NCBI RefSeq assembly: GCF_048287415.1 | Contig: NZ_JBLWEN010000001.1 | Location: forward strand, 88,790-152,789 | Direction of reading: 5' to 3' | Source: Candidatus Electronema sp. JM | Lineage (GTDB): Bacteria; Desulfobacterota; Desulfobulbia; Desulfobulbales; Desulfobulbaceae | Length of the DNA: 64,000 nt | In this document: positions 9,207-60,674 of the stretch, piece by piece | Layout of the letters: each line of letters begins with the position of its first letter | Position numbering within the stretch: the first letter of the stretch is position 1 | Translations under genes and position numbers: made by a program | Notes under the pieces: model-generated | Told to the model about the DNA's origin: nothing | Seen by the model: only the letters and a program-made list of their open reading frames with translations | Databases searched by the model: none

Positions 9207-11447
9207 ATGCTGACCCCTGAGCAGCGCAGAAAAAAGCAGCGGCTGATCCGCTGGGTCATAGCCTTCTGCCTGCTGCTGATTCCCTGTCTGATCTGGATGC
9301 AGCGGCAGCTCCTGCAAGGCCAGCTCAACCTGCCGGTATCCAGCACGGTGCTGATCTTCGCCCTGATCAACATCAACGGCCTGCTGCTGCTGCTGCTGCT
9401 TTACCTGATACTCCGCAATCTGGTTGAGCTGCTGTTTGAATGCCGGAACCGAATTATCGGGGCGAGGCTGCGGGCCAAATTGGTGCTTGCCTTTGTCTCG
9501 CTTTCGATTATCCCGACAGCGGCCTTGTTTTTAGTCGCATTAGGATCAGTGTCCACCTCAATGGACTACTGGTTCAACAGCAATGTCGAGGACTCGCTGG
9601 AATCTTCTCTCAAGCTGGCTCAAGGCATATTTCAGGAAACCGAAAACCGGGCCGCCAATATGGGCAGGCAGATCAGTCTGCTGCTGGAAAACATTGATAT
9701 TCGTCTGGAGGACAGCGACGGTCTCCAGCAGCTCTTCAGCAACACCCTTGCTCTTGCCCCTTCCGGCGCGCCAGATGCCTTGGTGCTGATTGATCATCAA
9801 CTGCGGCTGCGGGCCTCTGCCAAAGGGGAGCGGTTGGCTGCAATCGCCCTGCCGGACATCCCCAGCGAGGCACTGCGCCGGGCAGAAAGCAGCCGCAGCC
9901 CGGAGATCGTCACCCGGCAGGTCGGCATCGGCGAGCTGGTGCAGGCTGCTGCGCCGATGCAGTTCAAAGACGGCAGCCGCGCCTTTCTGATCACCAGCCT
10001 GCTCATTCCGTCAGAGCAGTTAGCCCTGATGCAGTCGGTTTCGCAAGGCATCACTGGCTATAAGCAGCTTGTTCTGTTCAAGGCGCCGATCAAGCTGAGT
10101 TTAATCCTCATGCTGCTGATCATCACCCTGCTGATTCTCTTCGGGGCGATTTGGTTCGGTTTTTACATCGCCCGCTCAATGACCAGCTCCATCAACAAGC
10201 TGGCGATCGCCACCCAGCGCATTGCCGAAGGGGATTTGAATTTCACCATCGAGAAGGACTCGGACGACGAGCTGGGCCTGCTGGTGGATTCCTTCAACTC
10301 AATGACCGCCGACCTTTTGGCCAGCAACAGCCAGCTAGCTGAAGCGCATCAGGCCTTGCAGGAGTCAAATCAGATCTCGGAGCAGCGCCGCCGCTATCTG
10401 GAGGCCATCCTCCGCAACGTGGCCGCCGGGGTTATCGCCATCAACGAGCAGCATCAGGTCACGATCATCAATCCCTTTGCCGAAAAGCTGCTGCGCATAG
10501 ACCCCGCGCTCTTCCTGCAACGCGATTTCCATGAGGTGCTGCCCCTCTCGCACGCGGCGATGCTGGAGCAGTTTTTCAGCGACCTGCGCGAGTCCGGCCA
10601 GCGGAGCATTGAGCGGCATCTCAGCCTGACGGTGCGCAAGGGCGAGACCTACTCGCTCTTAGTCAACATCACCCGCCTGCTCGATGACCGCGAGCGGCCC
10701 ATCGGCTACGTCATTGTTTTTGATAATTTGACCAAGCTGGAGAAGGCCCAACGCATCGCAGCCTGGCAGGAAGTGGCCCGCCGCATCGCCCATGAGATCA
10801 AAAACCCGCTCACGCCGATCCAGCTTTCGGCGCAGCGGCTGCGCAAGCGGTATCTGGAAAGCATCAGCAAGGACCGGGAGATATTCGATCAGTGCACAGC
10901 GACCATCATTCAGCAGGTGGACGAGATCAAGCGGCTGGTGACTGAATTCTCCGACTTCGCCCGGATGCCGCGCATCAAGAAGCAGCAGGCGGATTTAACC
11001 GCGCTGGCCGCTGACACGCTGGTGCTCTACCGCGAGGGCTGCAAGCACATTGATTTTCAATTGGAGCGCGGCCAGGTTCCGCCCTTCTCCTTTGATCCGG
11101 TGCAGATCCGCCGCGTGCTGATCAATCTTTTAGACAACGCGGTCAGCGTCCTCAGCAGCGGCGGCGCGGTCAGCCTCGCCATCAGCCTTGACCAGAATGA
11201 GGAAACGGTCAGCGTCTCAGTCAGCGACAACGGCCCCGGCATCCCGGAGGAGGTCAAGCGGCGGCTCTTTGAACCCTACTTCTCCACCCGCAAATCCGGC
11301 ACCGGTCTTGGCTTGGCCATTGCCAACACCATCGTTTCCGAACACAACGGCTCCATCCGCGTGCAGGACAATGCCCCGACCGGCACGACGGTCATCGTGG
11401 AGCTGCCCTTTCTCCGCGAGGAGCCAGCATGTCCGCAAGCATCCTGA
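9207..11447 (+). CDS. ntrY: NtrY-like sensor histidine kinase (multi-TM, HAMP, PAS, HisKA, HATPase_c)
   Basis: It has four or so N-terminal TM helices. The HAMP region is IARSMTSSINKLAIATQRIAEGDLNF, followed by a PAS-like region, the H-box HEIKNPLTPIQLSAQRL, and G-boxes DNGPGIPEE / GTGLGLAI. Its 3' end overlaps the downstream sigma-54 regulator. Confidence 0.8.
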   Translation: MLTPEQRRKKQRLIRWVIAFCLLLIPCLIWMQRQLLQGQLNLPVSSTVLIFALININGLLLLLLLYLILRNLVELLFECRNRIIGARLRAKLVLAFVSLSIIPTAALFLVALGSVSTSMDYWFNSNVEDSLESSLKLAQGIFQETENRAANMGRQISLLLENIDIRLEDSDGLQQLFSNTLALAPSGAPDALVLIDHQLRLRASAKGERLAAIALPDIPSEALRRAESSRSPEIVTRQVGIGELVQAAAPMQFKDGSRAFLITSLLIPSEQLALMQSVSQGITGYKQLVLFKAPIKLSLILMLLIITLLILFGAIWFGFYIARSMTSSINKLAIATQRIAEGDLNFTIEKDSDDELGLLVDSFNSMTADLLASNSQLAEAHQALQESNQISEQRRRYLEAILRNVAAGVIAINEQHQVTIINPFAEKLLRIDPALFLQRDFHEVLPLSHAAMLEQFFSDLRESGQRSIERHLSLTVRKGETYSLLVNITRLLDDRERPIGYVIVFDNLTKLEKAQRIAAWQEVARRIAHEIKNPLTPIQLSAQRLRKRYLESISKDREIFDQCTATIIQQVDEIKRLVTEFSDFARMPRIKKQQADLTALAADTLVLYREGCKHIDFQLERGQVPPFSFDPVQIRRVLINLLDNAVSVLSSGGAVSLAISLDQNEETVSVSVSDNGPGIPEEVKRRLFEPYFSTRKSGTGLGLAIANTIVSEHNGSIRVQDNAPTGTTVIVELPFLREEPACPQAS

Positions 11448-12796
11448 TCATTGACGACGAAAGCGCCATCCGCGAGAGCCTCTCCGGCATTCTGGAGGAC
11501 GAGGGCTTTCAGCCGCTGACCGCCGCCTCCGCCGAAGAGGGGCTGAACCTGCTGGCGCGGCAGGACGTTGATTTGATTCTTTTAGACATCTGGCTGCCGG
11601 GCATGGACGGCATCGAAGCCCTCAAGCGCATCCGGCAGAACTGGAGCGAGGCCCCGGTGATCATGATTTCCGGTCATGGCAGCGTTGAGACCGCAGTGCA
11701 GACCACCCGCATCGGCGCCTTCGATTTCATAGAAAAGCCGCTCTCTTATGACAAGGTGGTGCTGGCGGTCAACCAGGGCCTGCGGCTGGCCCGCTTGGAG
11801 CGCGAGAACCGCCTTCTGCGCGAGGCCGCGCCTGCCGGAGCGGCGATTATCGGCGAATCCCAAGCCATCCGCCAGCTGCGGCGGCAGATCGAGCGGGTCG
11901 CGCCCACAGACGCTTCCGTGCTGATTCTCGGCGGCCACGGCACCGGCAAGGAGCTGGCCGCGCAGGCTGTGCACCGCCAGTCGTCCCGCGCCGCCAGCCC
12001 GATGGTCGCGGTCAACTGCGCCGCCATCCCAGAGGAGCTGATTGAGTCCGAACTTTTCGGCTATGAGAAAGGGGCCTTCACCGGCGCGGACAAGGCCAAG
12101 CAGGGCAAATTTGACCAGGCCGACGGCTCAACGCTCTTTCTCGATGAAATCGGCGACATGAGCCTGAAGAGTCAGGCCAAGGTGCTGCGCGTCCTGCAAG
12201 AGAAGAACTTCGAGCGGGTCGGCGGCGGCAGGATGATTGAGGTGGATGTGCGCATCCTGGCAGCCACCAACAAGGATTTGGAGCAGGAAATCAAAGCTGG
12301 AAATTTCCGCGCCGACCTTTTCTACCGCCTGAACGTCATCCCGCTGCGCATCCCGGATTTGAAGGAGCGGCTGGAGGACATCCCGCTCCTTGCGGCGGAA
12401 TTCCTCCGCCAGCTCCGCAGCCGGGGCTTGGGCGAGAAGCGTTTAGACGACGGTGCGCTGGCCCTGCTCATGCGCCACAGCTGGCCCGGCAACATCCGCG
12501 AGCTGCGCAACCTGATCGAGCGGTTGGTGATCATGACTCCCGGCCAGCTTATCACCGCCGAGGATGTGAGCTTCTTTCTTCAGCCCAGCGCGGCACGGCC
12601 CATTCAGTCTGTCAGCCTGCCGGATTGGTGCCGCTTCGGCTTCAAGGAGGCGCGGCGGCAATTTGAGCACGATTATCTCTGCAAAAAGCTGGAAGAATGC
12701 GGCGGCAACATTTCCAAGACGGCGGAGACAATCGGCCTGGAGCGCAGCCATCTGCACAAGAAGCTGAAGGCATTGGGCATCAAGGCCGAGGAATAG
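11429..12796 (+). CDS. ntrX: NtrX/NtrC-family sigma-54-dependent response regulator
   Basis: It has a receiver (ILIIDDE...LILLDIWLPGMDG), an AAA+ sigma-54 activation domain with Walker A GGHGTGKE, the GAFTGA motif (EKGAFTGADK), an ESELFGYEKG box, and a C-terminal Fis-type HTH. Confidence 0.88.
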   Translation: MSASILIIDDESAIRESLSGILEDEGFQPLTAASAEEGLNLLARQDVDLILLDIWLPGMDGIEALKRIRQNWSEAPVIMISGHGSVETAVQTTRIGAFDFIEKPLSYDKVVLAVNQGLRLARLERENRLLREAAPAGAAIIGESQAIRQLRRQIERVAPTDASVLILGGHGTGKELAAQAVHRQSSRAASPMVAVNCAAIPEELIESELFGYEKGAFTGADKAKQGKFDQADGSTLFLDEIGDMSLKSQAKVLRVLQEKNFERVGGGRMIEVDVRILAATNKDLEQEIKAGNFRADLFYRLNVIPLRIPDLKERLEDIPLLAAEFLRQLRSRGLGEKRLDDGALALLMRHSWPGNIRELRNLIERLVIMTPGQLITAEDVSFFLQPSAARPIQSVSLPDWCRFGFKEARRQFEHDYLCKKLEECGGNISKTAETIGLERSHLHKKLKALGIKAEE

Positions 12797-20376: not shown

Positions 20377-21864
20377 CTATCGGCTGACACCAGCTTTGCG
20401 CTGGGCTATATCATCCAGTGCTTGCTGAAGCAACTTGGCCTTAGGGTGTTTCATTTTCTGATACAGGTGCAGGCTCCTCTTCCAAGCTGCTTCCGCCTGA
20501 TCAAAATTACCGTATGTCACATACACGCTGCCCAAATTTCCGTATGTGCTCGCCGTTGCTTCTTTTAGCCCCAAGGCTTCGCTGATCTCAAGGCTCTTTC
20601 TGTACATCTCCTCCGCCTTGCCCAATTCGCCGTGTTTGAAGTGTATACTACCCAAATTAGCATACTGTATTGCTGATGTTTCCTTCAACCCCAAGGCTTC
20701 GCTGATCTCAATGCACATCTTGGACATTTTTTTCGCCTTGCCCATCTCGCCGCGTCTTGCATACATATTGCCCAGATTGCCATAATCTTGCGCCATGCAT
20801 TCCCTGCGCCCCAAGGTTTCGTGGATCGCAAGTGCTTTCATGTACATCTCCTCTGCCTCGTCCATCTCGCCGCGCGTAAAGTGTGTATTACCCAGATTGG
20901 CGTACTGGTTCGCTGTTGCTTCCGTCAGTTCCAAGGCTTCGCTGATCTCAAGGCTCTTTTTGTACATTTCCTCTGCCTTGCCCTGCTCGCCACGTATCCT
21001 ATACACATTACCCAGATTCCCGTAATCTTTCGCCATGCCTTCCTTGCGCCCCAAGGTTTCGTGGATCGCAAGTGCTTTTATGTACATCTCCTCCGCCTTA
21101 TATAGCTCACCGCGTGTGCGATACACATTGCCCAGATTACAAATAGCGATTCCCTGTAGCTCGTTGTCCTGATTTGCCTCGCCCAAGGCCAGCACCTTGT
21201 AGTATGCCTCTTCGGCCTGCGCAAATTCCCCTGTGCGGAGGAGTAAGGTGGCAAGCATATTCCAGCCCTCCGCATTGTCCGGGTCAAGCTCCACAGCCTT
21301 CTGATATGCAGTTAGGGCTGCCTTGGTATCGCTCATAAAGGCCAATGCGCCCAAATGCCGGGCGGCGGCGGCTGCTTCCTTGTTCGCCTTCCTTCCTTCT
21401 GCCTCCTTGGTCTTCAGCACTTCAGCAAAGATGGCTTGAGCCAGTTCGGTACGCCCCTGCTCCAAAGCCTTCAAGGCTTCGTTGATGCTCTTTGGTGGCG
21501 CATCCGTCTTGGACAGAGCAGCAATTGCTTCCGTTAATGCCTTGATCTGCTCGTCTTTGGCCTCCAACTGCCCTTGCAATAGCTTTACGGCCAGCTTTCC
21601 CGCATCAACTGCCGGTGCCTTGTCCATGTATTTGTTCCAAACCGCAAGGAAAAAGCCAAGCACCGTCACACTCATCCCAAGCTGGAAGCCATAGGCGAGC
21701 ATCAACTTGATGATCATGCCTGACTCCTCTGGTGAAGGCGGTTGCAGCAGCTTAGAGTCAATGAGCTTAGTGTGGATGCCAAAGACAAGCATCAGGACAA
21801 AGCCCACTAGCACCAGCGGGACAGCCAGATACTTGGCAATCTTCTCAAAGTCTGTGAAGTTCAT
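20377..21864 (-). CDS. Membrane-anchored tetratricopeptide-repeat protein
   Basis: It has an N-terminal TM (VPLVLVGFVLMLVFGI) and about 10 TPR units with recurring G(N)LGNVY...G...KAEEMY..(K)ALAI/EISEALG. The repeat structure is also visible at the DNA level. Confidence 0.8.
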   Translation of the reverse strand: MNFTDFEKIAKYLAVPLVLVGFVLMLVFGIHTKLIDSKLLQPPSPEESGMIIKLMLAYGFQLGMSVTVLGFFLAVWNKYMDKAPAVDAGKLAVKLLQGQLEAKDEQIKALTEAIAALSKTDAPPKSINEALKALEQGRTELAQAIFAEVLKTKEAEGRKANKEAAAAARHLGALAFMSDTKAALTAYQKAVELDPDNAEGWNMLATLLLRTGEFAQAEEAYYKVLALGEANQDNELQGIAICNLGNVYRTRGELYKAEEMYIKALAIHETLGRKEGMAKDYGNLGNVYRIRGEQGKAEEMYKKSLEISEALELTEATANQYANLGNTHFTRGEMDEAEEMYMKALAIHETLGRRECMAQDYGNLGNMYARRGEMGKAKKMSKMCIEISEALGLKETSAIQYANLGSIHFKHGELGKAEEMYRKSLEISEALGLKEATASTYGNLGSVYVTYGNFDQAEAAWKRSLHLYQKMKHPKAKLLQQALDDIAQRKAGVSR

Positions 21865-31884: not shown

Positions 31885-32000
31885 AAGCCTGCCCGGCACT
31901 TCTTTCTTGACAAATGCGGCCCGCCGAAATAAAGTCGGTGTTTATGACCTGTTGCGTAACTGCCCTGCGTTGAGGAGCCGCAAAGCATGTGCTTGATGTA

Positions 32001-32022
32001 GGGGCGAAAAATTTTTCGCCCC
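32001..32022. repeat. Copy 1 of a 22-bp perfect-palindrome hairpin element, GGGGCGAAAAATTTTTCGCCCC
   Basis: An exact palindrome is seen with flank tgta...tgctgc. The same element recurs at 60482 and, degenerate and inverted, at about 63749. Confidence 0.85.
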
Positions 32023-32120
32023 TGCTGCTTATGCAAGAGGTCTGCTGACTGAGGATAAGTTTGCAACAAAACTGGCGGGAACATCCTGCCAAACAAGAAC
32101 TGACATCGGGAGGAGCGGAA

Positions 32121-39495: not shown

Positions 39496-40212
39496 CTATT
39501 GAGCAGTGCCTTTTCGAGGAATCTTCAGCCGTAGTCTTGGATAAATTAAGTTTGGGTTATCCATCAACTGAGGATGCTTCTCTTTATTTGCCAAAATAAT
39601 TTCTTGAACAGAAACGTGGTGTCGTTCAGCGATCTTTCCTAAACAATCGCCTTCCATTACTTGATAGCAGTCTTTGCCTAAATAGCAATCAACAGTCTCC
39701 TTTAGTTCTGTGATATTTTCTGGATTGGCATAGAATATGTAGACTGGCGCGAAAATCAAAGAAACAGCGTACCATCTTTTTTTACGAAATATCCATCTAA
39801 TGTTTATTGTTTTTTCATAAATTTTTTTTATTTTGCTTTTGCAATTTTCAATAAAAATTATGCCGCCGCTCAAGATGCCATCTATTTTATAGACAAAAAC
39901 AGGCAGATTCGACCTGTATTTCCGTATCAATCTATTTCCATATCCTTCCATGTAAAGAAGGATAAAAAACAATGTAAAAACACAGAATGCTATTATTTTA
40001 AATAAAATCATTAAAATCCAAGGAAGCACCCGGAGCGCAAGCCAAGGAATCAACAACATCAATACGAAAAGAATAACAAACGGGAGTGCAACGGATAGCC
40101 ATTCTGATCTTGATGCAGAAAATAGCTGTTCGGAAATAACTTGGAAGAAAAGAATACCTTTTATAAGGTATTCATCTTGAATTTGGTTTAACAGGCTATT
40201 CAGGCGTTCCAT
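39496..40212 (-). CDS. Membrane protein with a C-terminal LysM domain (last gene of the AT-rich operon)
   Basis: It has 2-3 TM helices (LPFVILFVLMLLIPWLALRVLPWILMILFKIIAFCVFTLFFILL). The C-terminal LysM is CYQVMEGDCLGKIAERHHVSVQEIILANK...NLIYPRLRLKIP. The gene is visibly AT-rich. Its start overlaps the upstream gene by 17 nt. Confidence 0.7.
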   Translation of the reverse strand: MERLNSLLNQIQDEYLIKGILFFQVISEQLFSASRSEWLSVALPFVILFVLMLLIPWLALRVLPWILMILFKIIAFCVFTLFFILLYMEGYGNRLIRKYRSNLPVFVYKIDGILSGGIIFIENCKSKIKKIYEKTINIRWIFRKKRWYAVSLIFAPVYIFYANPENITELKETVDCYLGKDCYQVMEGDCLGKIAERHHVSVQEIILANKEKHPQLMDNPNLIYPRLRLKIPRKGTAQ

Positions 40213-41437
40213 CTCTCCTTATTGATTCAGGGTGTATATTAATATCCGCACTTTCTTCTTGTTGATCCTGTTGTTTTTCCTCGCTGGATGACTTTTCTCC
40301 AATAAGAGCAGCTCCTTGGTCTGACAATCTTCCTACCTTCTGCACAAGTGATTTGGCAATATCCTCAAACCTCCATTCGCCGATCACACCTTTTTCAACG
40401 AAAATTTTTAATATTTCTATACAAGTTGAATTCTCTTCAACACGCATCTTCTCTTCCCTGTCTATTTGCTGTTTGACAAATGAAAGCAATTCTCTGTCGT
40501 TTGGATTTTCTGGATTGCATATTGCAATAATTCCGCGCCAATTACCAATTGACAGGAGCGGCGACAGCAGCGTTTCCCTATTTAGCCTATGATTGAATTC
40601 AATTCGCTGCATTTCAAGCTGCTTCTCAAATTCAATCTGCTTGATTCGCATCTCTGCTTCCATTTTCTTCAATTCAAAATTCATACTTTGTTCCAGCAGG
40701 ATAGTTTGCCTATAAAGCTCAATTTTCCTATCCTTAAATAGCAGCTCCTGTCTCATGGACTCTATCTCCATTTTCTGCTGCATCAGCCGTTTTTCCATTT
40801 CAGCCTTTATGGCATCTACCGAGAATTGCTCCTGAATGATTTTTTCTTGATTTTTTGCATCTATCGTCCCCAGCTTTCCATCAATCAGCCTTTTGCTGAT
40901 GGATTCATGTGGCGACAGCGTAACGAATGGAGGACGGCTTAACTTGAATCCTAAGTCATGAATTTTATTGCCATATATCAATTGACTTTTAAGCTCCTCA
41001 ACAACAGCTCGTTCTGCCTGCGATGCCTGCTCGTTCGCATAGTTTCGACAGATAGGCCGGATTATATCAAGAGCTGACTCTTTTAAAAAATCCCGAATGT
41101 CTCTCCTTCCATTCTGCACAATAAGCAATGGATTATCTATGCAATAAGTCAATGTGACTTCAGCTTGAAAAGGGAGTTCGTCAGCACAAGGAATACTTAC
41201 TGAAAAAAGAATTGAATATTCCGACAGATCAACTTCATAATACACCTTATATGTGCCGATGAGAATGTCGCCAGCTGTCGGCCCGCCATTTTTTCCTGCG
41301 TAAACAACAATTGGCGGACAATTTTCTCCAAGAAAGACATGTGCCTTTCCGAATTTCGGCGATTCAGGCCGTTTGAAGGAAAATTTTTCCAGTTTTCTCT
41401 CAATAACAAGCGGATATTCTTCAGGAGCGAAATCCAT
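40196..41437 (-). CDS. SPFH/band-7 (flotillin-like) domain protein with a long coiled coil and a C-terminal unknown domain
   Basis: The segment AEVTLTYCIDNPLLIVQNGRRDIRDFLKESALDIIRPICRNYANEQASQAERAVVEELKSQLIYGNKIHDLGFKLSRPPFVTLSP matches the SPFH-core consensus pattern. It is followed by an approximately 100-aa heptad-rich E/K/Q coiled coil. No TM segment is present. Confidence 0.5.
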   Translation of the reverse strand: MDFAPEEYPLVIERKLEKFSFKRPESPKFGKAHVFLGENCPPIVVYAGKNGGPTAGDILIGTYKVYYEVDLSEYSILFSVSIPCADELPFQAEVTLTYCIDNPLLIVQNGRRDIRDFLKESALDIIRPICRNYANEQASQAERAVVEELKSQLIYGNKIHDLGFKLSRPPFVTLSPHESISKRLIDGKLGTIDAKNQEKIIQEQFSVDAIKAEMEKRLMQQKMEIESMRQELLFKDRKIELYRQTILLEQSMNFELKKMEAEMRIKQIEFEKQLEMQRIEFNHRLNRETLLSPLLSIGNWRGIIAICNPENPNDRELLSFVKQQIDREEKMRVEENSTCIEILKIFVEKGVIGEWRFEDIAKSLVQKVGRLSDQGAALIGEKSSSEEKQQDQQEESADINIHPESIRRDGTPE

Positions 41438-42929
41438 TTTTTATCTCTGTTAAAATTTTCAAGGAAGTTTCAGATTCATCAGACCATTTTTCTAAGTACG
41501 CGCAAATGCAATTGCGATTTCTTGGAATACGAGAGACATCATATAAAATTCTTGCGAGAGTTTTCCAGAATTTTCCGTGCATGTCAATATGTTTCAGCCA
41601 CTTGAATATTTCAGTAAGAGCAAGTCGTCTGATTGGCTCCGAATCAAAAACTCTTTGCAGCAGACGGACAATGAGTTCTTCCGTCTTTGCTTTCTCTTCC
41701 GCAAGAATAAGAAGGCTCGGATGCTGGGAGCCGTCTTTAATTGACCAAGAAATACGCATCAAATCTGAAAATATAAGCAGAGACAAGCGATGAAGCGAGG
41801 ATTTTTTCTCCTGCCGTCCCCATTGGTTAAGAGATTGCAGAACGAGAACCGACGAACTTGATTGCTTGAAGAGCCATTTGACAGCATAAGCTATATCTTT
41901 AAAGAGTATTCCGTTGCCTGAATTTGCAATATTTCTTAAATCTTCGAGAGCTTGTTCAGGAAAATGCTGACCAAGACAAGAGCAATATGCGAAAATTGCA
42001 GTTTGATTCAATTTGACTGAATTTTTCAGACTACTCCAATAATGAATACTATTTAAAGAAAGTTGAGCAACATCTTCGTTTTCATCATATAAAACAACTG
42101 CAAGCGCAAATCCAACTAATTTTTGGATAGATTGACTTTCTGATTTTGCCCAAGGCAACAATATTTGGTCACGAACCGGTTGAAATTCATACCGTGCCAG
42201 CCGACCCGCTGTTGCTGCTGCTCTCAGTCTGATTTGAGAATTTTCATGTTTCCCTAACTCAAACAACCATTGCAGCATTGCTTTTGCATAAACATCACGT
42301 TCATGCCAGATGTGATGCAAAACAGTTTCTGGAGTTTCTTGGTCATCAAATGCAACTTTCTTGACAGGACTTTTGCCGCATTCGGTAACTTCGCAATCAT
42401 TTTCAAGATGCGCTGATATGTCTTTAAGCCACTGACTCCTTTTCTTTTCCTCTATCTCTTCGTCCAGATTAGAAGTATTTTCTATCTCCGCTTCCTTCCG
42501 CGACTGCAACCGAATGATATTTTGCAAATACTGGCTCGCCTCATCAACTAATCGGTAATTGCAGCCATTAAACACTGACAGTGAAATGATAAAACTGCGC
42601 CTGCTTTTGCAGCTATCAAATATAGATTCGATAGAAGAATCAAACGATTTATCTTTGTCCGCTTGCGTTTTTTGGCCAGAATAATTGCTCTGATCTCCGG
42701 CGATTATCGAGCCAGTATTATTTATATTGCTGTTTGATGCATGAAACCCTCCAGTGTAATTATAATTTTTAATTATTTGAATAATAGTTCTGCTGTTCTC
42801 TGTAAAATCATCTGTTTCGTTCGTATGTATTTTATTGTATTTTATAGATTCTTCAACAGATTTTATACCGTCATCTTCAGAAAGATGATCAATTTTTTCA
42901 AAGAAATTTTCTTCGTCGCCTTGTTCCAT
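41421..42929 (-). CDS. Hypothetical 502-aa protein with a C-terminal HEAT/ARM-like helical repeat region and an acidic N-terminus
   Basis: It is tightly coupled to its neighbours (a 14-nt gap upstream and a 17-nt overlap downstream). It carries no family motif I recognise. The C-terminal half is predicted all-alpha with periodic L/A/W patterns. Confidence 0.45.
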   Translation of the reverse strand: MEQGDEENFFEKIDHLSEDDGIKSVEESIKYNKIHTNETDDFTENSRTIIQIIKNYNYTGGFHASNSNINNTGSIIAGDQSNYSGQKTQADKDKSFDSSIESIFDSCKSRRSFIISLSVFNGCNYRLVDEASQYLQNIIRLQSRKEAEIENTSNLDEEIEEKKRSQWLKDISAHLENDCEVTECGKSPVKKVAFDDQETPETVLHHIWHERDVYAKAMLQWLFELGKHENSQIRLRAAATAGRLARYEFQPVRDQILLPWAKSESQSIQKLVGFALAVVLYDENEDVAQLSLNSIHYWSSLKNSVKLNQTAIFAYCSCLGQHFPEQALEDLRNIANSGNGILFKDIAYAVKWLFKQSSSSVLVLQSLNQWGRQEKKSSLHRLSLLIFSDLMRISWSIKDGSQHPSLLILAEEKAKTEELIVRLLQRVFDSEPIRRLALTEIFKWLKHIDMHGKFWKTLARILYDVSRIPRNRNCICAYLEKWSDESETSLKILTEIKNGFRS

Positions 42930-42942
42930 TTTTGATCTCTCT

Positions 42943-43353
42943 TCATTTTTTATTTATTTGATCCCTGCCTATAAAAGTCCCTTCATTGACAAAGGTGGAA
43001 TTTTTGATAAGCACACCTCCTGTTTGCACAATTCTTTCTACCTTTACCCCATAAAGCCGTGCGATATCTAACGCTAATTCCTGATCTTCTTGGAGCAGCT
43101 TTTTCACTTGAAAGTGCAGAGTCTTCTGCGCATCTTCTTCTGAAGGATCCCGTACCACATCTTCTGCCGCCATTTTCACACCTTCAACTCTTGCAGAAGA
43201 ACGGGAAGAAATTTTTGTCCAGACAGCCTTGGCCGTCTCCCATCCGTCAGAACCTATTTTTTCTAACGCTCCTCCCAGTATCTGTCCCCCACCGCTCAAC
43301 AGATAAGGAAGTACTGGCACTAAAGAAGAAACAACCATTTCAGCAAGTTCCAT
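42943..43353 (-). CDS. Hypothetical 136-aa protein, first gene of the AT-rich operon
   Basis: The ORF has a Gly-rich N-terminus (LLSGGGQILGGALEKIGSDGWE). It is followed within 14 nt by the next gene. No homology is recognised. Confidence 0.4.
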   Translation of the reverse strand: MELAEMVVSSLVPVLPYLLSGGGQILGGALEKIGSDGWETAKAVWTKISSRSSARVEGVKMAAEDVVRDPSEEDAQKTLHFQVKKLLQEDQELALDIARLYGVKVERIVQTGGVLIKNSTFVNEGTFIGRDQINKK

Positions 43354-43534
43354 AGTTTTTTCTCAATGTCTCAAGTTGTTCCAGCAGCCAGAGCAATTCA
43401 GGCTTGACAAGGGCAGGCTGCCGATGAATACTGCGCTGCTCAGTATGTGATCACCTGCAATAAATTTCAAGTATTTTAAAAGGGCTTTTGAGCTGCCTTG
43501 CTGCCTGTCTCGGCGGTGCAACAGCGGAGGCCGT

Positions 43535-47340: not shown

Positions 47341-48318
47341 TCAGTCCTTGCGCCTGCTGATGCTGACGCGTTGCAGCAGGCGGTTCTGGTCTTTGGCACC
47401 GTCATAGGCAATGACAAGCTGCCAGCTGTCCTGCCGCTCCTCAAGCACAGCCAAGCCCTCAGCCTTGGAGTCCTCGTCCGGCGGCGCAATTTCACCAAGC
47501 AGACACAGCCTGCCCATATCCTCCGGCCTGCGGTCTTTGCCCGGCACCGTGTCTTTGCCGTTCCAATGATAAATTTGATACGAATCTGTCCCGTCGCCCA
47601 CCGGCCCGGCCAAGATCAAAAAACCGTCAGCAACAGTGGCGAGATCGCGGATACCCCGCCCGCCGAGCCGGACATACAGCAGCTCGTATTGTTCCGGCTC
47701 CTCCCAACGCAGCCGCAGCACCGGGACGTAATTGTCCCGGAAGACCGGTCCCCGGAAACCGACATGCAGCCAGCCGTCCTTGACAGCAAGGCCTTCAATG
47801 TCAACGCCGTTCTCTTTGCTGGGAATGCCGCAGAAGGCTTTCAAGGCCGGATCATTATAAATGATGCCGCGCAGACTGATTCTGTCCTTCGCCAGCTCCT
47901 TGCCGTCTTCATTCAGCCGCAGGCGGAAGAGCCAGTCCCGGCTGACCTCGTCTTCAATTTTGTCCTGATGAAAAGTCTCCCGGTTTTCCTTCCAGTTGCG
48001 TTCTTTCTTGATCTTCTTCCGTTTGGAGGAGTGCGAGCCGATGACGTAAGCAAGATCGCCTTCAACGCAGATGCCTTCAATATCCAGCTCCTTGCCTTGC
48101 GTTACGAGGATACTGTGCGCCGCCACGCAGCTGCCGTCGCTGTTTATCGTAAGAAACTGAATGCGATTCTCGTCTCCGTCATGGCCTGATGCCTCGTCTG
48201 CGCCGATGATTAAAAAGGAGCGGAACTTTGCGACCGCGCTCACATTCTCAAGGGCCAAAATTTCGCCTGATATGCTTATAAAGCAAGCAGGTGCCATATC
48301 CTCATTTCTCCATAACAT
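47341..48318 (-). CDS. Hypothetical protein of 325 aa
   Basis: This is an ORF with no motif I can name. Its GC level is close to the background. Confidence 0.4.
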   Translation of the reverse strand: MLWRNEDMAPACFISISGEILALENVSAVAKFRSFLIIGADEASGHDGDENRIQFLTINSDGSCVAAHSILVTQGKELDIEGICVEGDLAYVIGSHSSKRKKIKKERNWKENRETFHQDKIEDEVSRDWLFRLRLNEDGKELAKDRISLRGIIYNDPALKAFCGIPSKENGVDIEGLAVKDGWLHVGFRGPVFRDNYVPVLRLRWEEPEQYELLYVRLGGRGIRDLATVADGFLILAGPVGDGTDSYQIYHWNGKDTVPGKDRRPEDMGRLCLLGEIAPPDEDSKAEGLAVLEERQDSWQLVIAYDGAKDQNRLLQRVSISRRKD

Positions 48319-48967
48319 TATATTTCTTAATATGCCTGAAAGCGGTCAACGCATCAAGGATGAAATCAAGCGATCCGGCTGGGCCATTGTAATGATAGAC
48401 ATTCTTCTTAGCCATGACCAATTCTCCGATATGCACTGGTGAAAAATCAGGATCAGCGCATGAAAGCTGGAACCATTCTCCTTCTTTTTTTTGAAACTTC
48501 CCCTGCATGGCTTCGATATCATAATTTGCCACCTGGTCATCTGTCGCCCGCCACATATTGTAGCTGCCATGCCCGACAAGCACGATGCTTTGATATTTTG
48601 GATCAGTGAGAACGTTCATGAAATCCGCTTTGGTAGCCGCAAAAAAATAGTCTATTTTTTCTCCTCTTGCATTAAAATACCACGTCCATGCCGGGTAGCT
48701 TCCCAAAAAGCCGAACGGCGGCGCCCAATAATCATAATCTGAAAAGGCATGTGCGGACAGCAGAATTGCGGCGTTCTTATCTGTTTTTGTAAGTAAATTT
48801 GAAGTGAATGCAATCGCCGCTATTGGTATATAAACTGCGATAAGAATAACAACATATTTTATCAGAGGCTTAATGCTGATAGTTCCAAATTTTTTCTTAA
48901 ATATAACGTGATATAAGCTCATGGGTGTCGTGCATGTTGAAATGATATAGCTTTTTCTTATGATCAA
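48302..48967 (-). CDS. Hypothetical membrane-anchored protein of 221 aa; an AT-rich single-gene cassette
   Basis: It has an N-terminal TM (VVILIAVYIPIAAIAF). The gene is visibly AT-rich. The conserved 55-bp element lies about 40-100 bp upstream on its strand. Confidence 0.4.
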   Translation of the reverse strand: MIIRKSYIISTCTTPMSLYHVIFKKKFGTISIKPLIKYVVILIAVYIPIAAIAFTSNLLTKTDKNAAILLSAHAFSDYDYWAPPFGFLGSYPAWTWYFNARGEKIDYFFAATKADFMNVLTDPKYQSIVLVGHGSYNMWRATDDQVANYDIEAMQGKFQKKEGEWFQLSCADPDFSPVHIGELVMAKKNVYHYNGPAGSLDFILDALTAFRHIKKYNVMEK

Positions 48968-48997
48968 AACTCTCAGCGTATATCCATGTCGTCACCT

Positions 48998-49056
48998 GAC
49001 ATGGCTTTAAATTGAAAAAGCAATGTTATAGATCACAACTTGGATTGAGTGTATTG
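48998..49056. promoter_or_regulatory. Conserved ~55-bp boundary element, copy B
   Basis: See copy A. It overlaps the last approximately 10 codons of the histidine kinase ORF (...KDNTLNPSCDL*). Confidence 0.6.
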
Positions 49057-51341: not shown

Positions 51342-52265
51342 ATGTACATGTACCTGCCTGTCGCCCTCACCAGCGTGAACTTCCTGCTGGTGTCGGGCAT
51401 CGGATTCACGGTCGGAATGCTGTCCGGCCTTTTCGGCGTGGGAGGTGGCTGGCTGATGACCCCCCTGCTGATGATGATCGGCATTCCGCCCACCATTGCT
51501 GCGGGCACGGACGCGAACCAGATTGTGGCCGCCTCCACCTCCGGCATGTACACCCACTGGCGGCTGGGCAATGTGGACTACAAGATGGGCATCTGTCTGC
51601 TCATCGGCAGCTTCCTCGGCGGCGCTTTCGGCGTGCAGGTCATCAAAGTGCTCACCGCCACTGGCGGCGCGGACTTCCTGATCAAGATCACCTACGTGCT
51701 CATGCTGGGCATAGTCGGCTCCTTCATGTTTGTCGAGAGCCTGACAGCGATGAAGAAGGCCAAGAGCGGCGAGGCCAAGCCTGCCGCGCCAAAGGACAAT
51801 GCCAAGAAGAGCCTGATCATGCGTCTGCCCTTGCAGACCACCTTTGAGAAGTCCGGCGTGTCCTTCTCCGCGCTGGTGCCGGTGGGCCTTGGCGCCTTTG
51901 TCGGCCTGCTGGCGGCGATCATGGGCGTGGGCGGCGGCTTCCTCATGGTGCCGGTGATGATCTACATGCTGCGCATTCCGATGCACGTGGTGGTCGGCAC
52001 CAGCCTGTTCCAGATCCTCTTCACCTGCATTGAGGTGACCTTCCTGCAAGCCTACTACAACCGGACTGTTGACTTCCTCCTCGCCCTGCTCCTCCTGATC
52101 GGCTCGGTCTTCGGCGCACAGATCGGAGCGAAGCTGGGCCGCAAGCTGCACGGCGACCAGCTCAAGATCCTCCTTTCCGTCATCGTCCTGTCCGTGACCG
52201 TGAAGCTGGTTTTCGACTTGATACTCCAGCCTGCCAACCTGCTTTCCTACGCTGGAGGACATTGA
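51342..52265 (+). CDS. TauE/SafE (DUF81, TSUP) family anion exporter
   Basis: It has two internal repeats with GxGGG motifs (LFGVGGGWLMTPLLMMIGIPP ; IMGVGGGFLMVPVMIYMLRIP). The start is at MYMYLPV, preceded by AAGGAG. Confidence 0.8.
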   Translation: MYMYLPVALTSVNFLLVSGIGFTVGMLSGLFGVGGGWLMTPLLMMIGIPPTIAAGTDANQIVAASTSGMYTHWRLGNVDYKMGICLLIGSFLGGAFGVQVIKVLTATGGADFLIKITYVLMLGIVGSFMFVESLTAMKKAKSGEAKPAAPKDNAKKSLIMRLPLQTTFEKSGVSFSALVPVGLGAFVGLLAAIMGVGGGFLMVPVMIYMLRIPMHVVVGTSLFQILFTCIEVTFLQAYYNRTVDFLLALLLLIGSVFGAQIGAKLGRKLHGDQLKILLSVIVLSVTVKLVFDLILQPANLLSYAGGH

Positions 52266-53029
52266 TCATGCGCATGATGAAAACAGCCCTGCTCGCAGCC
52301 GCCGCGCTCGCGCTCTCCGTTCATGCCGCCGCTGCGGCAAGCATTCAGGCCGCTCCGTCGGACATCAAAATATCCCTGTTCTACCACGGCGCGGCTGTGG
52401 AGGTCAAAGGACAGGCTGCGCCGGGCGAGGACGTGCTGGTCAAAGTCACGCCCTCCGAGCAGCATGAGTTCCACCTCAAATACAAGGGCAAGGCCGCAGG
52501 CATCTTCTGGATGAAGCTCGGCACCTTGGTGTTTGAGAACCTGCCCAGCACCTATCTGCTCGCCTCCTCCGGCCCGGTTGACAAGGTGCTGGACGCGGAG
52601 GCGCGGACTGCCGAGAACGCGGGCTTGGACGCTTTGCAGAAGAAGGCGGTGATCAAGGCGGAGAAAGGCGCGATGCCTGCTGGCGACTGGTTCGGCCAGT
52701 TCCTTGATTTCAAGAAGAAGGAGAAGCTCTACAATGTTGAGGAAGGCACGGTGAAGGTCGGCGCGGACGGCAGCTACAGCTACACGCTGGCCTGGCCGTT
52801 CCAGGCTCCTCCGGGCAGCTACAAGATTGAGGCTGTCACCGCCAAAAACGGCAAGGTGACAGGCCACGCCGAGACAGCGCTCACGGTTGAGCTGACCGGC
52901 ATTGTCGCCCTGCTGGCTAAGATGTCCGCTGACAACCGCACGCTGTACGGCATCATCTCCATTGTCGTGGCTGTCGCCGCCGGTTTCGGCGTGGGCATGA
53001 TCTTCAAGAAGGGCGGCGGCTCGCACTGA
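52262..53029 (+). CDS. TIGR02186-like periplasmic/TM protein, the usual DUF81 partner
   Basis: It has a signal peptide and then a soluble domain. The C-terminal TM is IISIVVAVAAGFGVGMIF. It overlaps the TauE stop by 4 nt. Confidence 0.5.
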   Translation: MIMRMMKTALLAAAALALSVHAAAAASIQAAPSDIKISLFYHGAAVEVKGQAAPGEDVLVKVTPSEQHEFHLKYKGKAAGIFWMKLGTLVFENLPSTYLLASSGPVDKVLDAEARTAENAGLDALQKKAVIKAEKGAMPAGDWFGQFLDFKKKEKLYNVEEGTVKVGADGSYSYTLAWPFQAPPGSYKIEAVTAKNGKVTGHAETALTVELTGIVALLAKMSADNRTLYGIISIVVAVAAGFGVGMIFKKGGGSH

Positions 53030-53060: not shown

Positions 53061-53094
53061 GGGGCAGGCCGCTGGTCTGCCCTGTTTTTATTTG
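53061..53094 (+). terminator. Intrinsic terminator after the TIGR02186-like gene
   Basis: The hairpin GGGCAG-gccgctggt-CTGCCC is followed by TGTTTTTATTT. Confidence 0.75.
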
Positions 53095-53208
53095 CGCACC
53101 GCCGTGCTTGCAGGGTGATTGCGGAACAGGCGGAAAATTGGTTGAATGGGCAGCGTGGCCACGTAGGGGCGGCTCGCGAACCGCCTCCTACTATGCTGTG
53201 AATCATGC

Positions 53209-53293
53209 TTGCACTATAGTGGAAGCAGCCATTGCACTACAGTGGAAACCTCGGTTGCACCATAGTGCAAACATCGGTTGCACTATAGTGCAA
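53209..53293. promoter_or_regulatory. Array of four 16-bp palindromic sites (TTGCAC-NATA-GTGCAA) at exact 23-bp spacing, about 120 bp upstream of the ROCO start
   Basis: Units start at 53209, 53232, 53255 and 53278. Units 3 and 4 are perfect palindromes. Units 1 and 2 have the half-site variant GTGGAA. Confidence 0.8.
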
Positions 53294-53412
53294 CCGCAAG
53301 CCACAGCCTGCTGGCCGCTTGGCTGCGAGGAAGCTGCAAGTATCCGAGCCATGCTCGAAGGCATTGCAGGGGCACCCTTAGCACAACCACACACCCACGG
53401 AGGAACGAGGCG

Positions 53413-55434
53413 ATGAGCAAAGAAGAAGCCTTGCAGCTAATTAAAGAGGCTGCGGAGACAGGGGCAACGTGGCTTAATCTCTTTAATCAAGGATTGAGTG
53501 AAATACCACCTGAGGTGTTTGCGCTTAAGCAGCTCACCTATCTTGGTCTCACTCATAATCGTCTCGCCTTTCTACCGCCAGAACTGTTTGAGATGAAGCA
53601 GCTCACCCAGCTTGAACTCAGCGACAATTGCCTTATCTCATTACCGCCTGAGGTGTTTACACTCAAACAATTAACCTTGCTTAACCTCATTCGCAACCAC
53701 CTTGTCACCCTACCGCCAGAGATTAATCAACTACCCAAGTTAAAAGATATTTGGTCTTTCGATAACCCCCTCGTCTCTCCTCCTTACGAAATAGCTATCA
53801 AAGGCATCTCAGCCATACGCGAATACTTCGCTGAAATGGAAGGCGAGAGCAAGGAGCTGGCCGAGGTCAAGATCATCCTTGTGGGCGAAGGCGCATCGGG
53901 CAAGACCTCATTAGTCAGGCGGCTGCGCGGGGAGCAGTTCGACCCGCACGAGCCAATGACGCACGGCATCAGCATCAACAAATGGCGGCCCGCAAGCGCA
54001 GGCCAGCTGCCCTGCTGCAATGTCTGGGACTTCGGCGGCCAAGAGATCATGCACGCCACGCACCAGTTTTTCCTTTCCCGCCGCAGCCTGTACGTCCTTG
54101 TCCTCGACAACCGGCGCGACGAGCGGCCCGAATACTGGCTGCGCTACATCGAAACCTTCGGCGGCGATTCGCCGGTCTTAGTGGTGCTCAACAAGCAGGA
54201 CATCAATCCCGGCTTTGATCTCAACCGGCCTTTTCTGCACGAGAAATACCCGTTCATCAAGGGCTTTTGGCCGCTTTCCTGCCACAGCGGACAGGGCATG
54301 GCGGCATTCACGCAAGCCTTGCACGAGGAGTTAGACAAGGTGCCCTTGAGCAAGAACCGCTGACCCGCAACCTGGTTCCGGGCAAAGGAAAAGCTGGAGC
54401 AGCTGCACGAGCCGCGCATCAACTACGAACGCTTCGAGCAAATCTGCCTTGAAGCCGGGGTGAAGGGCGCGACCACGCAGCAGGTCTTGGTGGATTTCCT
54501 CAACGATCTGGGCACGGTCATTCACTTTGATCAATTTGAGCTGAACGATCATCACGTCCTTAATCCGCAATGGGTGACAGAGGCGGTGTACAAGATCATC
54601 AACGCGCCGTCGGTGGCACATGCCAAGGGCCTGCTGCACGTGGATGCGCTGGCGGACATCTTAGCAAAGAAGAAGGACAGCGAGCATCGTTATTATCCCG
54701 CTGATCACCATTACATCATCGAGCTGATGAAGAAGTTCGAGCTGTGCTATCAAGTGGGTGAGAGCGAGGTGCTGATACCGCAGCTTTTGGCCGTGCCTGA
54801 GCCTTCCTTCACCTTTTATTACAGCAATGCCCTGCGTTTTGTTCTCCATTATGAGGACTTCCTGCCGCCGTCTGTCATGCCCCGCTTTATTGTCAATCGG
54901 CATAAAGAGATTCAAGGCGAACTGCGCTGGCGCAGCGGCGTTGTCCTGAAGAATGCGCAGCTTGATGCCAGCGCGGTGGTGCGGGCGGATGACGAGGCCC
55001 GCCGCATTCATATCGCTGTGACCGGCAAGGAGCGCAAAATCTTCCTCGCCCTGATTTGGCTCACTCTGCGGGAAATCAATGCGGGCTTTGAAGGCTTGAA
55101 GGTCAGCGAGCGCGTGCCCATGCCGGATGAGCCGGAACGCAGCGTGGATTACGAGACACTTCTCAGCTATGCGGAACAGGGCTTGGAAAAGATTATCCCC
55201 GAAGGCACGAAAAAGGCATATAGTGTGAAAGAGCTGCTGGAACGGGTGCATTTCGCCAATGAAAGCGAGGGCAGGCAGATGCTGGCTTTGGCTGAGGGTG
55301 AACGGAAAGGCGGAGCAGTGAACAAAACAGGCGCCGCATTGAACACCATGTTCAAGCTGGAGCCTTCAGTTTTTGGCGTGGGAATCAACCTCAATGCGAT
55401 GTTTGACGCTCTGCTGAAATGGCAGAGGAAGTAA
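53413..55434 (+). pseudogene. ROCO-type signalling GTPase (LRR - Roc/Ras-like GTPase - COR) interrupted by a single in-frame TGA at 54361..54363
   Basis: There are LRRs at 53413 onwards. The Roc P-loop is ILVGEGASGKTSL, with DFGGQE and NKQD motifs. After the stop, the same frame continues (PATWFRAKEKLEQLHEPRINYERFEQICLEAG...) into a COR-like approximately 320 aa. The tool ORFs 53278..54363 and 54460..55434 are in the same frame. Confidence 0.8.
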
Positions 55435-60307: not shown

Positions 60308-60481
60308 GTCTGTGGCTGCTGTCGGCGATGGAGTTCTTCCTGGCAGCTTATGCTCTGGCAGAGGACACCATTATGCTTGACAAGAGGACAACGTTATCCT
60401 CTTGCGGAGCATAACATTATGCTCTTTGGCTGCATAGTGCTATGCAGCGGCAGCAGCAAATATGGTCGTGGCAATGGTGTA

Positions 60482-60503
60482 GGGGCGAAAAATTTTTCGC
60501 CCC
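60482..60503. repeat. Copy 2 of the GGGGCGAAAAATTTTTCGCCCC palindrome
   Basis: It is identical to copy 1 and has similar flanks (gtgta...tgcagc). Confidence 0.85.
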
Positions 60504-60542
60504 TGCAGCATTGCGGAAAACATGCAAAGGAGGAACGAGGCG

Positions 60543-60674
60543 ATGAACAAAGAAGAAGCCTTGCGGCGGATTAAACACGTGGAGGAGACAGGAGCAACGA
60601 GGCTTGATCTGAGCTTTCAAAGATTGACTGAACTGCCGCCTGAACTCTTTCAAATAAAAAATGAACCAACTTGA
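60543..60674 (+). pseudogene. 43-codon stub of a ROCO/LRR-family N-terminus with a conserved RBS region
   Basis: MNKEEALRRIKHVEETGATRLDLSFQRLTELPPELFQ... parallels MSKEEALQLIKEAAETGATWLNLFNQGLSEIPPEVFA... at 53413. The upstream GGAGGAACGAGGCGATGA is shared with the ROCO gene. Confidence 0.6.

Follow-up and report, generated by a model that had tools for sequence, protein, structure and literature searches.

A 23-bp-phased palindrome array upstream of a ROCO gene in Candidatus Electronema sp. JM: one copy of a dispersed family with a possible link to HU-Ig proteins

We analyzed a 64,000-nt stretch of contig NZ_JBLWEN010000001.1 from Candidatus Electronema sp. JM, a freshwater cable bacterium; this whole stretch is called the window here, and its own coordinates are used for its features. 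A 383-bp intergenic region, with an Alph_Pro_TM gene upstream and a ROCO gene downstream, holds four short dyads in tandem (array 1), the last of which ends 120 bp before the ROCO ATG. From comparison with other genomes, array 1 is one copy of a dispersed family of 23-bp-phased palindrome arrays and is not specific to the ROCO gene. We lean, with modest confidence, toward regarding it as an orphan member of this family, whose arrays would be recognized by paralogues of a protein with an HU fold and Ig-like domains (HU-Ig). The locus contains the following features, in which REP stands for repetitive extragenic palindrome, LRR for leucine-rich repeat and RBS for ribosome-binding site:

52262-53029, Alph_Pro_TM gene, upstream neighbor of array 1
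53061-53083, + strand, terminator-like hairpin and T-run that ends the TauE / Alph_Pro_TM gene pair
53163-53191, + strand, REP-like GTAG hairpin (GTAGGGGCGG...CCGCCTCCTAC), 17 bp ahead of array 1
53209-53293, no strand, array 1: four 16-bp dyads (6-bp arms, 4-bp center) with 7-bp spacers, period 23 bp
53209-53224, no strand, unit 1 of array 1, TTGCACTATAGTGGAA, a single arm mismatch
53232-53247, no strand, unit 2 of array 1, TTGCACTACAGTGGAA, a single arm mismatch
53255-53270, no strand, unit 3 of array 1, TTGCACCATAGTGCAA, arms perfect, center asymmetric (CATA)
53278-53293, no strand, unit 4 of array 1, TTGCACTATAGTGCAA, a perfect palindrome that extends to CGGTTGCAC..GTGCAACCG
53312-53326, + strand, weak candidate sigma-54 -24/-12 element, TGGC-N8-TGC, read by eye and putative
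53413-54363, + strand, ROCO gene, LRR and Roc part, with ATG at 53413, RBS GGAGG at 53399 and in-frame TGA at 54361-54363
54460-55434, + strand, ROCO COR-A and COR-B domains, same reading frame resumed after the TGA

The consensus dyad of array 1 is TTGCAC-N4-GTG[C/G]AA, with the centers TATA/TACA/CATA, and the arm mismatch of units 1 and 2 places G opposite G at positions 3/14. The unit starts lie exactly 23 bp apart, at 53209, 53232, 53255, and 53278, as an initial annotation of this DNA had read them when it described four phased 16-bp dyads before the ROCO gene. It had also called the last two units perfect palindromes, which is true of unit 4; in unit 3 the perfection is confined to the arms. 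Tandem Repeats Finder (TRF) reports a period of 23, 3.6 copies and a score of 108. When the window was searched for TTGCAC-N4-GTGCAA with at most one mismatch, the units of array 1 were the sole four sites in 64 kb, against a chance expectation of 0.24 per window, and none of 100 shuffles (0/100) reached four. Array 1 is real and non-random, and on this point the annotation, which had set chance aside, was right.

The window carries a second array of the same architecture, built on a different palindrome:

60362-60446, no strand, array 2: four 16-bp dyads of AGCATA-N4-TATGCT type, period 23 bp, with units at 60362 (AGGACACCATTATGCT), 60385 (AGGACAACGTTATCCT), 60408 (AGCATAACATTATGCT), and 60431 (TGCATAGTGCTATGCA)
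60479-60506, + strand, REP-like hairpin GTAGGGGCGAAAAATTTTTCGCCCCTGC, just past array 2
60543-60674, + strand, truncated paralogous ROCO 5' end, an RBS and about 40 codons

Array 2 ends 97 bp before the ROCO-like start codon at 60543; the truncated ROCO paralogue of the window carries an array of another type than the full gene. The truncated 5' end is roughly 80% identical to 53399-53540 and runs into a PPDK-like gene at 60661. The REP-like GTAG hairpin has three exact copies in the window (31998-32025, 53163-53191, and 60479-60506), two of which flank arrays. Such GTAG-headed hairpins (e.g., GTAGGGGCGAAAAATTTTTCGCCCCTAC) recur in cable-bacterial intergenic DNA (at L002, L043, L102, L120, and L122 in the locus numbering given below), often 15-40 bp from 23-bp arrays. 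We considered them as a component of the array element and treat them as separate neighbors; the copy at 31998 has no array beside it.

A pattern scan for two adjacent units, run on one genome per species, gave 112 loci (named by L-numbers), and a metagenome scan gave seven (L116-L122). The loci of the pattern scan form two classes, LacI double operators, which are the most numerous and are described at the end, and multi-unit arrays, which make up the remainder and come from cable bacteria, Verrucomicrobia, and Bacteroidales. The cable bacteria concerned are E. aureum, E. nielsenii, E. halotolerans, Electronema sp. KV, and Electrothrix gigas. The unit type of array 1 recurs at many unrelated loci of cable bacteria, namely L002, L033, L043, L054, L060 (two arrays), L081, L102, L104, and L117-L122, and the TATA-center type at L081, L033, L118, L119, and L121. 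At L081 (E. gigas) the dyads are near-identical to those of array 1, the spacers are unrelated and the neighboring genes are different.

The placement of 12 independent cable-bacterial orphan arrays was counted with our own open reading frame (ORF) picks, checked by Pfam, as gene calls. Seven of the 12 lie between co-directional genes, with ROCO (twice), a ChlI-like ATPase, Uma2, a LysA-like decarboxylase, relB, and a nitrogenase component-1 spacer (L121) as neighbors. One lies between divergent genes, and four lie between convergent pairs: RecQ/Der (L060), a TonB receptor and an NB-ARC gene (L102), a DUF3482 GTPase and a NifH-family gene, and a transposase and a TPR gene. L120 is among the loci with an array between convergent genes. 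At L121 (2544-2674) a six-unit TTSCAC-TATA array is found between two nitrogenase component-1 genes (nifD/nifK-like), within an operon. Overall, this placement roughly resembles random intergenic expectation. The initial annotation had named a dispersed repeat family unrelated to promoters as the finding that would count against it, and this agrees in part with what we see: the family is dispersed and includes sites between convergent genes and inside the nitrogenase operon. Its proposal of strong, cooperative regulation dedicated to the ROCO gene is not sustained, as the array type is dispersed, the ROCO homologues of L113, L114, and L115 have no array upstream, and no convincing promoter is seen between array 1 and the ATG. 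For the same homologues, we rejected the idea that an array is conserved alongside ROCO genes.

L115 (Ca. Electrothrix gigas) has a third array type at 5219-5341, in which five AACTCAC-CA-GTGAGTT units follow one another every 23 bp and a 46-bp super-period is superimposed; its neighbors are a ROCO COR gene on one side and a relB/parE pair on the other. TCTC-type arrays of Electronema (L002, L043, L054, L102, and L120) are repeatedly found 146-251 bp 3' of NB-ARC(-TPR) STAND NTPase genes, the gene on the opposite side being variable; at L120 the array is also 3' of a TPR gene.

The 23-bp step is essentially the sole tandem period in the cable-bacterial DNA that we sampled. In these 192 kb, 21 regions match themselves at a lag of 23, none do so at lags 17-20, 22, 24-26, or 28-29, and all TRF arrays have a period of 23 or 46; in 615 kb from other phyla, TRF found no arrays of such period apart from the selected sites. 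Over the 72 units compared, information reaches 1.25-2.0 bits at positions 1, 2, 4-6, 11-13, 15, and 16 of the arms and stays at 0.1-0.4 bits in the 7-bp spacer. At the mirrored positions 3/14, Watson-Crick pairs occur in 35 of the 72 units, where independence would predict 32.4, and G-G or C-C mismatches are frequent. Conserved half-sites without covariation at 3/14 indicate that each half-site is constrained separately, which argues for a dimeric protein and not for a hairpin. Between orthologous loci, the arrays vary in steps of whole units (10 in L054 vs. 7 in L002). The array 1 region has a predicted fold of -43.5 kcal/mol (z = -5.9 vs. shuffles), a trivial consequence of its palindromes. 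Rfam searches at gathering and permissive thresholds gave no family match, and returned only chance miRNA-like hairpin matches. The annotation had offered a dimeric-repressor operator or an iteron-like array; free spacers, the lack of covariation, the 23-bp register and the typical number of four to five units speak for an array of dimeric-protein sites, and the iteron half of the proposal finds neither a replication gene nor an AT-rich unwinding element nearby.

A candidate for such a protein is encoded beside some of the arrays. At L033, L117, L118, and L119, a gene for a 357-aa protein with an HU-DNA_bdg domain (PF14848) begins about 105 bp past the end of the array. Members of this HU-Ig family (~357 aa) consist of the HU-fold domain PF14848, an Ig-like DUF4469 domain and an extra C-terminal beta domain. 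A family search gave 516 matches, with several paralogues per genome; the best 120 of the 516 are 55-90% identical, and all named ones among these are from cable bacteria. In Pfam, HU-DNA_bdg matches residues 10-116 at a borderline 21-31 bits (cut-off 30), and a weak DUF4469 match at residues 133-224 is followed by the further beta domain. An AlphaFold2 model (mean predicted local distance difference test score, pLDDT, 90.8) predicts all-beta domains at residues 132-357. When this model was compared with the PDB by Foldseek, the top match was 4FMR, an HU-Ig homodimer of Bacteroides vulgatus (E 6.5e-14, probability 1.0); it was the sole high-confidence match, the others being Ig or Fab folds.

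We examined nine HU-Ig loci, four of which had been picked by protein homology alone (P0202, P0220, and P0237 of E. aureum, and P0139 of Electronema sp. JC). All nine, and so all four of the protein-only picks, have a 23-bp array of three to five units upstream of a TTGACA -35 box. This box lies 79-89 bp before the ATG, and a 17-bp gap separates it from a downstream TAGGAT, TACGAT, or TACCAT. The array directly abuts the box in eight of the nine loci, and in L002b a REP-like insert separates the two. The dyads differ between paralogues as follows:

TTSCAC-TATA, at L033, L118, and L119
TTSCAC-TCTA/TAGA, at L117
TTGCAC-TCTC/GAGA, at L002b
AGTCAC-CAGA-GTGACT, at P0220
CCTGAA-CCTC-TTCAGG, at P0139
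TATGC-AG-GCATA, at P0237
CATAC-N5-GTATG, at P0202

The orthologous loci L033, L118, and L119 have one dyad type in common and, judging from these loci, array type co-varies with the HU-Ig paralogue. In two genomes, gene-linked arrays also have matching orphans. In E. aureum, the array at L002:~490-555 (upstream of a truncated paralogue at L002:300) matches the orphans L002:7331-7490 and L043, and in the E. gigas AU1_5 assembly the gene-linked array of L033 matches the orphan L081.

Arrays of similar form accompany related genes in other phyla. In Verrucomicrobia, TTGCA[C/T]-N4-[G/A]TGCAA arrays in 23- or 46-bp phase lie alongside HU-DUF4469 genes at L085, L128, and L129. At L085, six TTGCAC-N4-GTGCAA units follow the gene at a distance of 63 bp. 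Of the two protein-only picks, L128 has three TTGCAC-GACC-GTGCAA dyads at 46-bp spacing, and L129 has five TTGCAT-N4-RTGCAA dyads with a 23-bp period, some 480 bp downstream. At L001 and L056, remnants of HU-DUF4469 genes are kept beside the arrays. In Bacteroidales, the HU-HIG genes of L028, L058, and L100 have 22-bp-phased arrays upstream. We count these Verrucomicrobial and Bacteroidales cases in favor of a link between protein and array.

Bacteroidales genomes contain many 22-bp-phased copies (e.g., TTTCACACGTGTGCAAAT..AT, four units) with short conserved boundaries, most of them without an adjoining HU-HIG gene; such multi-copy arrays were seen at L015, L017, L028, L044, L051, L057, and L078 of one Alloprevotella metagenome-assembled genome (MAG) and at L013, L046, and L058. 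In one Puniceicoccaceae MAG, a 20-bp inverted repeat (CCTAAGGAAGCGACCCC ... GGGGTCGCTTCCTTAGG) flanks the six-unit arrays of L056 and L085, as do HU-DUF4469 gene fragments in opposite orientations, an arrangement suggestive of a module that was duplicated or can invert. Treponema denticola offers an intriguing parallel to the HU-Ig-type arrays ahead of an LRR-ROCO gene: in this species, TDE_2259 (HU-DNA_bdg/DUF4469) adjoins the LRR-protein gene lrrA (TDE_2258), the two being jointly down-regulated in a trtA mutant (PMC12724145).

The simplest account of these observations is that HU-Ig paralogues bind their own arrays, because of the dyad arms, the register, the four to five units, the position at the promoter, the paralogue-specific sequences and the matching orphans. 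A two-fold-symmetric HU-Ig dimer would read two TT[G/C]CAC half-sites with centers 10 bp apart, and neighboring dimers would sit every 23 bp and bind cooperatively. Each paralogue would have its own palindrome; one cognate array, immediately ahead of the promoter of the paralogue's gene, would serve autoregulation, and further arrays would lie elsewhere in the genome. Array 1 would then be an orphan array for a TTGCAC-TATA-specific HU-Ig paralogue, which we infer Electronema sp. JM to possess. On balance, we consider it somewhat probable that array 1 is such an orphan. The wider statement, that HU-Ig (HU-HIG-type) proteins are diversifying sequence-specific binders, each paralogue with its own 16-bp dyad in 21-23-bp-phased arrays at its own promoter and in orphan copies, is made more tentatively, as a serious possibility that falls short of being probable.

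Several observations weigh against these proposals. No HU-Ig gene was detected in the 64-kb window by tblastn, profile hidden Markov model or Pfam counts. Column entropy and the comparison of paralogues with known arrays revealed no clear specificity-determining region, and helices alpha1-alpha2 are nearly identical in P0139 (CCTGAA type) and P0122 (TTGCAC type). The co-variation of array and paralogue could instead arise if the arrays are mobile and preferentially target the DNA upstream of HU-Ig genes. The Verrucomicrobial arrays are on the 3' side of the HU-DUF4469 gene and not on the 5' side, and in Bacteroidales an HU-HIG gene falls within the 8-kb locus for just 3 of ~25 arrays. On the basis of the structure 4FMR, Burroughs et al. 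(2017, PMC5499826) argued that the classical DNA cleft of HU is blocked by the Ig domain, and they considered it improbable that HU-HIG proteins act as sequence-specific factors.

As to the ROCO gene itself, occupancy of array 1 may affect its transcription, with a sign that could go either way, or its effect may be purely architectural. The terminator-like hairpin closes the upstream TauE / Alph_Pro_TM pair, and the ROCO gene therefore needs its own promoter. In favor of an effect, each of the two ROCO-type starts of the window is preceded by an array at about 100-120 bp, a distance similar to that between array and gene in the HU-Ig loci. On the other side, a sigma-70 scan of 53294-53412, from array 1 to the ROCO ATG, found no consensus match, the homologues at L113-L115 lack an array, and orphan placement looks random; as convergent placement is about that expected by chance (4/12), a regulatory role at any one orphan, this one included, is not implied.

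Other explanations have to be weighed against HU-Ig recognition. A dedicated operator, on which a dimeric repressor or activator specific to the ROCO gene would act cooperatively through the four sites, gains from the position of array 1, past the terminator and 120 bp before the ATG, from the equivalent position of array 2 at 97 bp before the truncated paralogue, and from the seven of 12 orphans that precede a co-directional gene, whose start follows at a distance of roughly 20-150 bp. The same array type, however, precedes unrelated genes (a ChlI-like ATPase, an HU-Ig gene), lies between convergent pairs and enters a nitrogenase operon; the ROCO homologues of L113-L115 do without it, no regulator gene is adjacent, and no promoter was recognized between array 1 and the ATG, so that we regard such an operator as rather improbable. 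A selfish or neutral dispersed repeat, minisatellite-like or mobile, which would grow in 23-bp steps and possibly prefer HU-Ig upstream regions as targets with no dedicated binder, is unlikely too, though it deserves somewhat more attention. It would explain the many copies that a genome has in intergenic settings of every kind, the change in unit number between orthologous loci, the 46-bp super-period of some arrays, the conserved flanks of multi-copy Verrucomicrobial and Bacteroidaceae elements and the frequent REP-like hairpins next to arrays. However, the dyad arms are conserved across genera while the spacers are free, and diverged array types are still dyad-symmetric, keep the period and stand at the same place with respect to the HU-Ig -35 box; neutral drift is disfavored because it would not preserve these traits. 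No transposase, terminal repeats or target duplications were seen either.

Three further readings appear much less plausible. If the array acted as RNA or single-stranded DNA, tandem stem-loops in a 5' or 3' untranslated region might serve as stabilizers, attenuators or protein-binding RNA; the region does fold far better than its shuffles, and some arrays lie within operons or 3' of genes. Folding is trivial for palindromes, the pairing at positions 3/14 shows no covariation, with mismatches common, the arrays occur in either orientation relative to neighboring genes, and a structured RNA family was rejected for want of an Rfam match and covariation; we give this reading very little weight. 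NtrC-type sites, TGCAC...GTGCA, resemble the array 1 dyad. An upstream activating sequence for a sigma-54 enhancer-binding protein at a -24/-12 ROCO promoter is suggested by this resemblance, by the TGGC-N8-TGC element at 53312-53326 and by a sigma-54 activator gene at 11429-12796. The promoter match is weak and is not embedded in the CAC and TTGC context normally seen, only about 19 bp separate the -24 element from the proximal site, and the same arrays precede sigma-70-type TTGACA-N17 promoters in HU-Ig loci, which leaves the sigma-54 reading very improbable. Plasmid iterons (pPS10, R6K, RK2) are typically 22-23-bp phased, and the multi-copy, tandem nature of the arrays could recall iterons or a centromere-like partition site. 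Against this, neither a rep or par gene nor an AT-rich unwinding region lies nearby, the context is chromosomal, and each genome has many arrays; we find the idea scarcely credible. Viral contigs gave no match (0) to the double-unit pattern, and the array is therefore not phage-borne.

The N-terminal part of the ROCO protein matches a protein of Candidatus Electronema sp. JM at 100% identity; exact look-ups of this part and of a TrmFO-like protein of the window gave no recorded entry. The LRR-Roc-COR frame of the ROCO gene is broken by one in-frame TGA (54361-54363), after which the same frame goes on, and the ROCO homologues of L113, L114, and L115, three further contigs of cable bacteria, are likewise called as two adjacent ORFs with different split points; these split frames could be pseudogenes, assembly errors or recoding. 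A further LRR protein gene at 1905-2960 of the window, with an N-terminus resembling that of ROCO, directly follows the preceding gene and leaves no space for an array. At 20567-21099, a TPR-protein gene contains a 120/240-bp tandem repeat (4.4 or 2.2 copies); it belongs to a lower-GC stretch (17-22 kb) together with two PD-(D/E)XK (PDDEXK_2) transposase-like genes. Two low-GC islands (39500-43400 and 48000-49000; 37-49% GC vs. about 58%) were possibly acquired horizontally; they contain four genes that run in one direction, one of them encoding a LysM domain, together with another small gene.

We found no account of these arrays in cable-bacterium genome papers, and a literature motif search gave only primer and CRISPR noise. 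In the literature examined, DUF4469 has no paper of its own and PF14848 comes up once, for TDE_2259 of T. denticola. As far as the literature examined shows, the link between protein and array would be new. If our reading is true, it describes a new protein-repeat system in at least Desulfobacterota (cable bacteria), Verrucomicrobiota, and Bacteroidota, in which orphan arrays, among them the two ROCO-type ones here, tie the expression or local DNA architecture of variable, defense-like loci to particular paralogues. The HU-HIG / DUF4469 expansions would gain a concrete DNA target, the predicted lack of sequence specificity would be overturned, and a conspicuous class of cable-bacterial intergenic repeats would be explained. 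For the ROCO gene, a named candidate factor would take the place of a dedicated repressor. Matched pairs of protein and site from several paralogues make it possible to study how DNA specificity co-evolves with its sites.

Among known systems, the lambda operators OR1-OR3 (23-24-bp center spacing) and hipBA O1-O4 are rows of 16-18-bp dyads about two helical turns apart that are bound by cooperative dimers. The arrays resemble them in having several dyads in a row and, in the HU-Ig loci, in the autoregulatory layout of an array beside its own promoter. They differ in that the candidate binder has an HU fold and Ig domains instead of a helix-turn-helix, in their location upstream of the -35 box and not over the core promoter, and in their many non-promoter copies.

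The REP and bacterial interspersed mosaic elements (BIME) of E. coli with IHF sites (RIP/RIB), and REP-RAYT pairs, are clusters of short extragenic palindromes with an HU/IHF-type connection. Like them, the arrays occur between convergent genes and within operons, in several families per genome that are each linked to a protein gene; unlike them, the units lack a GTAG head, keep a strict 23-bp tandem register and are linked to a gene that is not a transposase. REP/BIME membership, defined by GTAG-headed imperfect palindromes of 20-40 nt in alternating orientation, was rejected for the arrays, and the GTAG hairpins at 53163 and 60479 are separate from them. Plasmid iterons share the tandem period of about 22-23 bp, but they are direct repeats by a rep gene and an AT-rich region, whereas the arrays are dyads, chromosomal and dispersed.

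LacI-family double operators make up about 60 loci (L004-L110, in Rhodobacteraceae, Rhizobium, Rouxiella, and Granulosicoccus), each with two TTGCAC-[GC-rich N4]-GTGCAA dyads 22-24 bp apart, flanked by a LacI-family regulator gene and a sugar ABC transporter operon. We set this conserved, ordinary class of operators aside as unrelated to the arrays. Their half-sites are identical to those of the cable-bacterial arrays (TTGCAC-N4-GTGCAA), but they comprise two sites only, have a GCGC/CCGG center and are always placed between a LacI-family gene and a sugar ABC operon. We rejected this identity for array 1, which has Alph_Pro_TM and ROCO neighbors instead of LacI and a TATA/TACA/CATA center instead of CG.

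The closest comparison for the protein is the HU-HIG clade, which is lineage-expanded and fast-evolving, has no conserved gene neighbors, and was described with no mention of associated DNA repeats (Burroughs et al., 2017, PMC5499826). The array-adjacent proteins share with this clade (PDB 4FMR) the HU-plus-Ig architecture, lineage expansion, fast divergence and lack of conserved operon partners. They differ in their extra C-terminal beta domain and in that each cable-bacterial paralogue examined has a cognate phased palindrome array.

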